Shown here piece after piece: positions 38,631 to 40,285 of a DNA stretch of 61,215 nt. Source of the DNA: a virus. Its lineage: Duplodnaviria > Caudoviricetes. The notes beneath the pieces are model-generated. The model made no database searches and was not told the DNA's origin. It worked only from the letters and a program-made list of their open reading frames with translations. How positions within the stretch are numbered: position 1 is the first letter of the stretch; each line of letters opens with the position of its first letter. The stretch lies in the IMG/VR virus record IMGVR_UViG_3300028571_000029, positions 1 through 61,215 of that record; one strand, 5' to 3'. Made by a program: the position numbers and the translations under genes.

Positions 38631-39569
38631 ATGAAAAGATTAACAGAACAAGAAGTTATTCAACGATTTACTGAAGTTCATAAAGGTAAGTATAATTATT
38701 CAAAAGTATTATATAATAATAGTCAAATAAAAGTAGAAATAATTTGTCCAATTCATGGAAGTTGGATGCAGACACCATCTGATCATTTTAGAAGACATGG
38801 ATGTTTAAAATGTGATATAGAAACTCGTAAAGAACTTAAATATTCATTACAAGAGCTCTTACAAAAGTGTAAAAATAAATACGGAGAAATATATGATTAT
38901 ACAAATATACCAAAATACTCAGGAATAACTTCTGAAATTTATATTAAATGTAATATACATAATAATATAATTAATACGACTTTTAGCAGACACCTACAAG
39001 GAAAAGGAGGGTGTAAAGAATGTCAATATAAAGGTAACGCTAATAGTTTAAAATTAGGAGCTAATATTTTTATAGAAGAATCAAAAAAGATTCATGGGAA
39101 TAAATATGATTATTCAAAAGTAGTTTATAAAAATAATTCAACTAAAATAGAAATAATATGTAAAAAACATGGAGCTTTTTTTCAAACTCCAAATGCTCAT
39201 AAAGATAATAAACAAGGGTGCCCTAGTTGTAAAGAATCAAAAGGAGAATCTAGAATAAGGGTTTTTTTAGAATCAAATAATATACAGTTTATAAATCAAC
39301 ATTCTTACGAAGATTGTAAATATAAAAACAAATTATTGTTTGATTTTTATTTACCTAAATATAATCTAATAATAGAATTTGATGGAATGCAACATTATGA
39401 ACCAATACCATGGTTACATGGAAGGCCTGATTATAATTTTGAATATCAGCAATTAAAAGATAAAATAAAAAATGAGTACTGTATTAAAAATAATATTTCT
39501 TTATTGAGAATTAAATATACTGATATTAATAATATTGAAAGAATTATTACAAATTATTTGGGAATATAA
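38631..39569 (+). mobile_element. free-standing homing endonuclease (Zn-binding repeats plus C-terminal Vsr/PD-(D/E)XK-like domain)
   Basis: Three repeats Y(D/N)YxxxxY...CxxH...HxxxxGCxxC; FDFYLP...IEFDGMQH...KDKIKNEYC...LLRI. Confidence 0.8.
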
Positions 39570-39617
39570 AAAATATTTCATACATTTAAGATTATATAAT
39601 ATAAAAATAAAAAAAAT

Positions 39618-40285
39618 ATGTCAACGATTAAAATTAATTTATCCGCGGGTACCAGATTATGGTTCACCGCGGACACGTAACACATTACAATCACGCTAAC
39701 ATCTGTTCTGCCACAACTCAGTGGACCGATCCTGTAACTTGTAGAGAATTTAAATCATTGGAACGTATGAATGCTCACCTAGTTGGTAATATCAACGAAG
39801 TGGTTGGACAAGATGATATATTATTCCATTTAGGAGATTGGAGTTTTGGAGGATTCGAACAAATCGAACTATTCAGAAATCAAATCGTATGCCGAAATAT
39901 TCACCTCATTACAGGTAATCATGATCACCATATTGAGCGAAATAAAGATAATATTCAATCAATATTCAGTTCAGTAAATAAATACTTAGAACTAAATGTT
40001 AAATTTAACCAGGATACGATGTTAGCTGGTTCTGCTGATTTTGTTTTAATGCATTACCCTATTGCTAGTTGGAATAATATGGCTAGAAATTCAATTCATT
40101 TACATGGACATGTTCACTTACCTTCAAATCAAAGGATTGGTAAAGGTAAAATGATGGATGTTGGGGTGGATGGTAATGGATTAAATCCAATTAGTTTGAG
40201 TGAGGTTTTAAAGCTAATGAAGAACCAACCAGTTAAATCATTATTAACATTTGACCATCACGAGATGGTTGAGAATTATAAATAA
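39618..40285 (+). CDS. calcineurin-like metallophosphoesterase, interrupted by a 5-nt stop-containing insert at 39678-39682
   Basis: MSTIKINLSAGTRLWFTADT|HYNH joins motif I (DxH); LGDWS, GNHD, HYP and HGHVH are intact downstream. Confidence 0.85.

Follow-up and report, generated by a model that had tools for sequence, protein, structure and literature searches.

A five-base coding gap probably hopped by ribosomes in a phage phosphoesterase gene, and a family of similar cassettes linked to homing endonucleases

Why should a phage enzyme gene carry a stop codon inside its most conserved motif, shortly downstream of a free-standing nuclease gene, and still bear the marks of a living gene? The question is raised by a 61,215-bp (base pair) viral record, IMGVR_UViG_3300028571_000029, the whole of which is called the window here. 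Its content of guanine plus cytosine (GC) is 28.7%. Flavobacterium phage immuto, the closest relative with a name, shares 68% DNA identity with it and in the phosphoesterase only, so that a Flavobacterium host is a guess. The interrupted gene encodes this phosphoesterase. An earlier note on this DNA had proposed that five extra bases in the gene protect it against the nuclease upstream, are co-inherited with that nuclease and are skipped during translation, as a minimal analogue of mobA and gene 60 of phage T4. Judging from comparative sequence evidence, we find it likely that the five bases are a programmed coding gap hopped by ribosomes (+5; +6 in a kinase gene of the same window) and that they belong to a widespread cassette family of uncultured phages linked to homing endonucleases. 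The parts of the phosphoesterase gene are these:

39618..39680, plus strand: phosphoesterase, first part; ATG, 20 codons ending in WFTADT, then TAA
39642..39673, plus strand: GC-rich hairpin, arms TCCGCGG and CCGCGGA with inner pairs; one base separates its 3' end from the take-off codon
39675..39677, plus strand: take-off codon ACG, encoding the Thr of Asp-Thr-His; the 20 other phosphoesterase cassettes all have ACN here
39678..39682, plus strand: five-base coding gap TAACA; TAA (39678-39680) is the stop, ACA (39680-39682) the proposed landing triplet
39683..40285, plus strand: phosphoesterase, second part; starts at CAT (HYNHANI...), 200 codons; stop at 40283-40285

The first part, read from ATG 39618, encodes MSTIKINLSAGTRLWFTADT and ends at TAA 39678-39680. 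The second part carries the calcineurin-like metallophosphoesterase motifs LGDWSFGG, GNHDHH and HGHVH and matches Pfam Metallophos_2 (1.3e-6; 28.9 bits against a cut-off of 27) and the phosphoesterase family phrog_547 (2e-38), with no match in NCBIfam. Motif I of the enzyme, Asp-x-His (DT-H), is restored only if five nucleotides (nt) are skipped. We compared the gene with its 80 closest phosphoesterase relatives in IMG/VR, and 78 of them read WFTSDTHYNH without interruption. Joining 39618-39677 to 39683-40282 yields the same WFT(A/S)DT-HYNH motif, and in the alignment the insert-less alleles show a clean gap of five columns opposite the insert. Together, the unbroken relatives and the clean alignment gap indicate that exactly the five bases 39678-39682 break motif I. 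The earlier claim of a five-base insert in the most conserved motif near the end of the nuclease gene was thereby confirmed, with the insert lying 108 nt past the nuclease stop. Contigs assembled from four DNA runs gave patchy cover, and among the listed pieces none spans the phosphoesterase gap.

A second gene of the window is broken in a comparable way:

41892..41957, plus strand: kinase, first part; ATG, 21 codons (...LFLLRGLP), then TAG
41914..41952, plus strand: 10-bp GC-rich hairpin, its 3' arm ending on the first base of the take-off codon CCG
41955..41960, plus strand: six-base in-frame gap TAG CTA within the Walker A motif (GLP / GAGKST)
41961..42311, plus strand: kinase, second part; GAGKSTLAK..., 116 codons and a stop

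The second part of the kinase matches AAA_33 (4.4e-8) and phrog_2071 (3e-33) and has no match in NCBIfam. Its Walker A motif, GxxxxGK[ST], is seen as GLP-GAGKST only with TAGCTA skipped. The relatives at the compared loci are unbroken in 66 of 66 cases and read RG(L/I/V)(P/S)G(S/A)GK(S/T), mostly RGLPGSGKST. An N-terminal extension missing in the relatives, MDNLKQDRSPL, carries the 5' arm of the kinase hairpin, and the gap sequence is identical in contigs from two other samples (X3 and X5). The kinase cassette lies after the RNA ligase gene, not after the nuclease gene, so an aside of the earlier note, that the kinase insert has no adjacent nuclease, proved right: six bases interrupt Walker A, and the neighbour is the ligase gene. 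Both interrupted genes belong, with the RNA ligase, to one RNA-repair (healing-and-sealing) module.

The same breaks recur in other contigs, which together with the compared loci are labelled here by L-numbers. The phosphoesterase layout (GC-rich hairpin, Thr codon, stop, Thr-like triplet, His codon) was found in 20 further contigs, and since these are independent, the break is neither an assembly artefact nor chance. A scan allowing any five bases returned 28 stretches, 20 of them real cassettes and 8 false; in the real ones the downstream frame is open for 68-200 codons and a hairpin is present, and in the false ones there is no stop, the frame is open for at most 10 codons and the folding energy is about 0. 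All 20 real inserts are led by a stop (TAA 11, TGA 4, TAG 5), and their last three bases are ACT in 13, GCT in 4, and ACA, GCG and ATT in one each. When inserts of 1-30 nt were allowed in the HYNH-type gene, only five-base inserts appeared (4 stretches, three lineages); in a metagenome collection, such a scan gave one six-base insert, ACT TGA ACA (L263). This contig carries a full second Thr codon after the stop. Its gap (positions 23-58, minus strand, ACT TGA ACA CAC) has the textbook layout of a stop-hop, behind the usual GTCCGAGG/CCTCGGAC hairpin.

For the kinase, a P-loop pattern constrained to contain a stop gave 72 real cassettes among 74 stretches, and an unconstrained six-base scan gave 76 stretches, 66 real and 10 false; every one of the 66 real inserts is led by a stop. 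The 50 distinct kinase contexts take off from CCT, CCG or CCA and have as their stop TAA in 24 cases, TGA in 16 and TAG in 10; the triplet after the stop is CCN in 25, CTN in 22, TCA in 2 and ACA in 1. As a negative control, the kinase pattern was run against 596 gigabases (Gb) of bacterial and archaeal genomes, where it made 73 matches and found no real cassette. Overall, the break recurs in about 90 independent contigs for the two genes; in no real case are fewer than 68 codons open beyond the gap, and mostly the frame runs to its full length. A scan of all compared viral loci for further combinations of hairpin, stop and resumed frame returned kinase and phosphoesterase cassettes only, plus a few false matches. 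An apparent RNA-ligase cassette in L090 and L120 was rejected, the ligase open reading frame (ORF; 8681-9742) being intact in another frame. Also dropped as false were the pattern matches L099 and L108 (kinase), L165, L170 and L264, as well as L249, L253-L256, L258, L260 and L262 from the five-base phosphoesterase scan and L265-L274 from the six-base kinase scan. Among GenBank phages the cassette part of the L097 kinase had no aligning record, and this narrow search found no cultured cassette-bearing phage.

One group of kinases, reading (T/S)RPSQ(I/V/M)L(I/N)IMRGVP (L086, L089, L101, L114, L117 and similar loci), has the same cassette with a different upstream neighbour and with longer bodies (in L086 and L089, 239-279 codons after the gap). 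The cassette thus spans more than one kinase architecture. For the phosphoesterase, a quick tree requires at least five changes of insert state, three of them forced by well-supported branches, and places the genes of the window, L034 and L171 each among insert-less relatives. Transfer of the N-terminal segment as a 'cassette' piece is only suggestive: its residues unlike those of insert-less relatives are the ones encoding the 5' arm of the hairpin, and convergence is therefore possible.

One element shared by the two genes is a hairpin immediately 5' of the gap. In the window, the phosphoesterase hairpin folds with -20.4 kcal/mol over 91 nt (z -3.2; 0 of 200 shuffles equally stable) and the kinase hairpin with -28.0 kcal/mol (z -3.9; no shuffle equally stable). 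Only eight GC-rich stems of at least 7 bp exist in the whole window, namely one terminator, five in an alanine repeat and two at the gene breaks, one at each. The repeat, rich in alanine and in GC, occupies 19229-19366 within the ORF 18980-20218. An Rfam search of 38200-42500 with E up to 1 gave zero matches. Between lineages the register of the 5' arm shifts by one, and for this reason we compared folding energies, over the 51 nt up to the take-off codon, rather than a consensus structure. The median energy for the kinase was -23.2 kcal/mol in 48 insert-bearing genes against -2.5 in 49 insert-less ones (p = 1e-17), and for the phosphoesterase -18.7 kcal/mol in 15 against -3.1 in 58 (p = 2e-9). 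Hairpins were confined to alleles that carry the insert.

The arms differ in sequence by lineage and stay complementary: GCACTCCCC/GGGGAGTGC, GAAGCCCT/AGGGCTTC and GGATCCCGCG/CGCGGGATCC in kinases, and the co-varying GTCCGAGG/CCTCGGAC, TCCGCGG/CCGCGGA and GTCCGCAG/CTGCGGAC in phosphoesterases. G.U pairs number 39 + 16, with just one A/C among the 1x1 mismatches, and the sense strand folds better than the antisense strand in 35 of 48 kinases (p = 6e-4). Frequent G.U pairs, a rare A/C mismatch and the better folding of the sense strand all suggest that the hairpin acts at the level of the messenger RNA (mRNA). In the phosphoesterase cassettes of L160, L163 and L164 the arms stand about 40 nt apart and enclose a second, inner hairpin, so the loop can be long and structured.

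Another shared element is the triplet before the codon at which reading resumes. By standard pairing rules, the transfer RNA (tRNA) for Thr with anticodon NGU pairs with ACN and, with one G.U pair, also with GCN or AUU; tRNA-Pro (NGG) pairs with CCN and, with one G.U pair, also with CUN or UCN. With G.U allowed, this triplet can pair at positions 1 and 2 with the take-off tRNA in 20 of 20 phosphoesterases and 49 of 50 kinases. For the phosphoesterase only position 2 is informative, because position 1 is the last base of the stop and thus automatically A or G. The window phosphoesterase would go from ACG to ACA, and in its class the landing triplet is ACN in 14 of 20 and G.U-compatible in the other 6. 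In the window kinase (CCG TAG CTA) the re-pairing would consist of C:G, U.G and a third position A. A cluster of six tRNA genes in the window (1388-3090) comprises Cys, Phe, Lys, Trp, Arg and Leu, with no Thr, Pro or suppressor tRNA among them.

The frame beyond the gap is under purifying selection. In 12 of 12 pairs of insert-bearing genes, the proportion of nonsynonymous differences (pN) after the gap is far below that of synonymous differences (pS), and the ratio of nonsynonymous to synonymous substitution rates (dN/dS) was 0.05-0.25 or synonymous sites were saturated; a pN far below pS is seen in the second part of the window phosphoesterase compared with L171 and L034. The low pN relative to pS after the gap shows that the interrupted genes are alive. 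A stop-led gap, matched Thr codons for take-off and landing, a co-varying 5' hairpin and selection after the gap provide comparative backing for the proposal that the insert is skipped during translation.

On these grounds the hop may be pictured as follows. With peptidyl-tRNA(Thr) on ACG 39675-39677 in the ribosomal P site and the slowly decoded TAA in the A site, the mRNA would slide forward by 5 nt; the tRNA would re-pair with ACA 39680-39682, decoding would resume at CAT, and the product would have an intact Asp-Thr-His motif. At take-off the 3' arm of the hairpin would necessarily lie inside the ribosome, and its refolding at the mRNA exit would probably pull the message forward. The kinase would follow a +6 version, CCG-TAG-CTA, resuming at GGA.

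What would such a gap be good for? We counted nuclease neighbours of the kinase cassettes by requiring an ORF of at least 100 amino acids (aa) that ends at most 300 nt upstream, for which 65 cassettes qualify. Of these, 41 adjoin a NUMOD3 + TnsA-like nuclease, mostly divergently transcribed, one a GIY-YIG and one an HNH nuclease, and 22 have no nuclease. Among 16 phosphoesterase rows (14 contigs), 5 have a LAGLIDADG nuclease directly upstream and one, that of the window, a nuclease of its own type, the others being without any; six further phosphoesterase cassettes had no adjacent match to 19 nuclease queries. By contrast, 78 insert-less control loci, taken with a flank of 3 kilobases (kb) on each side, yielded no nuclease of the TnsA-like, LAGLIDADG or window type; 7 of these loci have weaker GIY-YIG, HNH or NUMOD matches 0.5-3 kb away. 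The NUMOD3 + TnsA-like nuclease has no homologue among GenBank phages at 1e-8. In one 9.5-kb contig (L084, 819-2622), a TnsA-like nuclease, a kinase gap CCT TAA ACA and a phosphoesterase gap ACG TAACT stand in a row, and the 5' arm of the kinase hairpin lies inside the end of the nuclease ORF.

As a class, then, insert-bearing genes are strongly linked to genes for homing endonucleases of several families. Most plausibly, the cassettes arose as nuclease-resistant alleles of the target motif that would cost the protein nothing. More broadly, we lean towards the view that hairpin-driven +5 and +6 hops are a natural and widespread phage decoding device, through which nuclease cassettes or their victims could place resistant micro-inserts in catalytic motifs at no cost to the protein.

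The nuclease of the window itself requires separate treatment:

38631..39569, plus strand: nuclease gene, free-standing; its 312-aa product has three zinc-ribbon-like repeats and, at the C-terminus, a nuclease-like domain

Its PHROGs matches are to phrog_559 ('HNH endonuclease', 4e-70), to phrog_9084 ('homing endonuclease', 5e-29) and to phrog_7140 ('intron encoded nuclease', 5e-15). Pfam offers just DUF723 and DUF4379, a treble-clef zinc finger, with two nuclease-like matches below threshold. PDB sequences and NCBIfam gave no match from which a catalytic fold might be read. Phages of Staphylococcus, Bacillus and Streptococcus contain DNA relatives of the gene, which carry annotations as homing or intron-encoded nucleases.

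The idea that the insert protects the phosphoesterase gene against this very nuclease, both being inherited as one cassette, was the starting point, and we now regard it as unlikely. It draws on the homing or intron-encoded annotation of the nuclease family, on the mere 108 nt between the two, on the patchiness of the nuclease, which is absent from all 81 related loci, and on the other nuclease families that adjoin the same type of insert. It conflicts with the distribution of the two elements, which is independent and so contradicts co-inheritance. The nearest homologues of the window nuclease, 77% identical to it, occupy the same position in L172, L173 and L174, where the DNA is colinear over 38514-40263 at 74% identity, and there the phosphoesterase reads FFTSDTHYCHSS, without insert and without hairpin. 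Conversely, among the nearest insert-bearing relatives, L171 has the same TAACA insert directly behind an RNA ligase gene with no nuclease there, and in L034 and L035 the upstream neighbour of the insert is an unrelated 111-aa gene. The window nuclease was not found in four insert-bearing contigs searched whole, nor in the searched parts of the L034 and L035 contigs. An immunity role is thus plausible for the cassettes as a class and not supported for the window nuclease, and the likeness to mobA holds as a statistical association with homing-endonuclease genes and fails for this particular pair.

Two observations concern the nuclease locus. The insert-less phosphoesterase of L174 (3013-3060), like those of L172 and L173, reads DTHYCHSS in place of the DTHYNH(A/S)N of nearly all relatives, and these replacements beside the motif could be an alternative resistance to the nuclease by substitution. 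Upstream of the nuclease gene, the non-coding segment 38514-38630 (about 74% identity to L172-L174) has inverted repeats (GTCGGACC ... GTCCGACC) as well as AAGCTTA ... TAAGCTT, which resembles a terminator and precedes a T-run, with no Rfam match; it may be a regulatory leader or a remnant of a nuclease-carrying element. The cassette and the adjacent nuclease of the window appear to be separate acquisitions. In the simplest history, the hop cassettes would be old, perhaps relics of other nucleases, and the present nuclease would have come separately to a favoured intergenic spot.

Several points weigh against a programmed hop with nuclease links. One set of phosphoesterase cassettes was picked with a pattern that fixes the landing AC, although the three other phosphoesterase scans were unbiased. 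In about half of the kinases (the window's CTA among them), as in 6 of 20 phosphoesterases, the landing triplet is no more than near-cognate. That the hairpin pulls is argued by analogy with work on gene 60, among whose relatives the 5' stem-loop is not conserved, according to the available portion of Manning and Atkins (10.1101/2022.08.31.505936). A long nascent-peptide signal of the gene 60 type is not possible, because the hop site is only 20-21 codons from the start. As for the nucleases, the control loci represent one clade of close relatives and the contigs are not phylogenetically independent; the nuclease without insert (L172-L174), the insert without nuclease (L171, L034, L035) and the position of the window kinase cassette after the ligase count here as well.

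The hop may also be real and mainly regulatory, setting or timing a low yield of RNA-repair enzymes (for example in response to release-factor or tRNA status), with nucleases merely favouring the same spots. The 22 of 65 kinase cassettes and most phosphoesterase cassettes that have no nuclease beside them fit this explanation, as does the placement of both cassettes in one RNA-repair module; for gene 60, the accessible part of 10.1101/2022.08.31.505936 discusses that bypass is about 50% efficient and may serve some further function. Nevertheless, a nuclease gene abuts 43 of 65 kinase cassettes and none of the controls, the inserts sit exactly in the most conserved coding DNA, which is the usual target of homing enzymes, and such a device is missing from 78 of the 80 close relatives of the phosphoesterase and from all 66 of the kinase. 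We consider a mainly regulatory role improbable, though worth keeping in view.

Removal of the extra bases from the RNA, by editing or by hairpin-guided cutting and rejoining, perhaps with the phage kinase, phosphoesterase and ligase as the tools, is appealing in that both broken genes lie in a healing-and-sealing module and the hairpin behaves as an RNA structure. However, it leaves unexplained the in-frame stop at the head of every real insert (20 of 20 and 66 of 66) and the match between the last triplet of the insert and the tRNA of the take-off codon. The enzymes would also be required for their own production, and no RNA family was matched. We judge this explanation quite improbable.

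Still less probable is some other form of decoding, that is, read-through of the kinase stop, which would add two residues to the P-loop, together with a phosphoesterase frameshift of -1 or +2. Read-through would indeed give a full-length kinase chain, the insert being in frame, and the triplets after the kinase stop would encode Pro, Leu, Ser or Thr. Against this, a gap of five nucleotides is beyond rescue by read-through, yet both genes share the design of hairpin and stop; all three stops are used, no suppressor tRNA exists in the window and a slippery heptamer is absent. The product would have a lengthened metal- or phosphate-binding loop (the Asp-x-His loop in the case of -1 or +2), which has a fixed length in every relative, and the triplet after the stop is kept at nucleotide positions 1 and 2, not as an amino acid. 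Finally, although each gene is formally interrupted by a stop and IMG/VR contigs are uncurated, dead genes or assembly errors are a negligible prospect in view of a dN/dS of 0.05-0.25 after the gap, at least 68 open codons in every real case, recurrence in about 90 independent contigs and an identical kinase gap in two further samples.

Between the two interrupted genes of the window lie two others:

40298..40681, plus strand: DUF7448 gene (Pfam), context
40689..41837, plus strand: RNA ligase gene of the RNA-repair module (Pfam, PHROGs), context

To our knowledge, efficient programmed bypassing has essentially one bench-proven case, T4 gene 60. The literature searched, with subscription journals and supplements outside its reach, holds no description of these phosphoesterase and kinase cassettes. 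If the hop is true, they would be the first natural stop-hops, and about 45 nt would make a minimal system in which mRNA refolding at the ribosome exit moves the message without translocation. Once confirmed, it would offer about 90 natural variants with a simple co-varying signal (hairpin, stop, landing triplet), and hence a small test bed for two questions: by what means structure behind the ribosome drives sliding, and to what extent the anticodon has to re-pair. The cassettes also matter for annotation, in which such genes are presently called fragments or pseudogenes, and they bear on the co-evolution of homing endonucleases with their targets.

Among known systems, the closest is T4 gene 60 with mobA. 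As far as the consulted parts of PMC5009743 and 10.1101/2022.08.31.505936 describe it, that system likewise has a non-coding insert in a conserved catalytic motif of a phage enzyme, a take-off codon followed by a stop, and a landing triplet readable by the same tRNA. A link to free-standing homing endonucleases is shared too, including cases in which the nuclease is lost or replaced by another family and the bypass stays (the same preprint, in the portion seen). For gene 60, what was available of 10.1101/2024.12.09.627546 proposes that forward movement is driven by pairing within the mRNA 5' of the site. The differences are substantial. The gap is 5-6 nt here and 50 in gene 60, and unlike gene 60 the cassettes lack a take-off stem-loop in the gap and an internal Shine-Dalgarno-like element and leave no space for a nascent-peptide signal of 46 residues. 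Instead, a dominant and strictly conserved hairpin lies wholly 5' of the gap, with its end at the take-off codon; the relatives of gene 60, by the source portion already cited, do not conserve its 5' stem-loop. The genes encode a phosphoesterase and a kinase rather than a topoisomerase, the nucleases are LAGLIDADG, NUMOD3 + TnsA-like and others, and there is no sequence homology to the gene 60 cassette, which the 2022 preprint of Manning and Atkins (10.1101/2022.08.31.505936), in its accessible part, calls unique.

In layout, the cassettes resemble the synthetic 'stop-hops' of Escherichia coli (Weiss et al. 1987), in which matched codons around a stop let nine nucleotides specify one amino acid, inefficiently, as summarized in the available part of PMC5009743. 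According to the same part of that review, shorter equivalents of gene 60 in nature had by 2016 been 'long presumed', and an in-frame stop-hop of natural origin was not known. The stop-hop layout is exact in L263 (ACT TGA ACA) and in 25 of 50 kinase contexts (CCN stop CCN), and the window phosphoesterase is an overlapping +5 form of it. Compared with the synthetic constructs, the cassettes are natural, conserved and equipped with a hairpin, and many of their landing triplets are near-cognate only.

The 'byps' of Magnusiomyces capitatus mitochondria are 27-55 nt long. They too are short inserts that are jumped, with an imperfect match of take-off and landing and an A-site codon that is unused or slow, as the accessible part of PMC5009743 has it. 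Byps occur in the mitochondrion of a yeast, and mRNA context is said not to matter to them; the gap of 5-6 nt here stands in a specific hairpin context. Last, the Seg and Mob homing endonucleases of T4-like phages offer a parallel for the nucleases, being intergenic beside a conserved target, patchy and replaced by other families at the same site (10.1101/2022.08.31.505936, within the part consulted). In the Seg and Mob systems immunity is reached by silent substitutions, whereas in the cassettes it would putatively come from a frame-breaking insertion that is repaired at translation.

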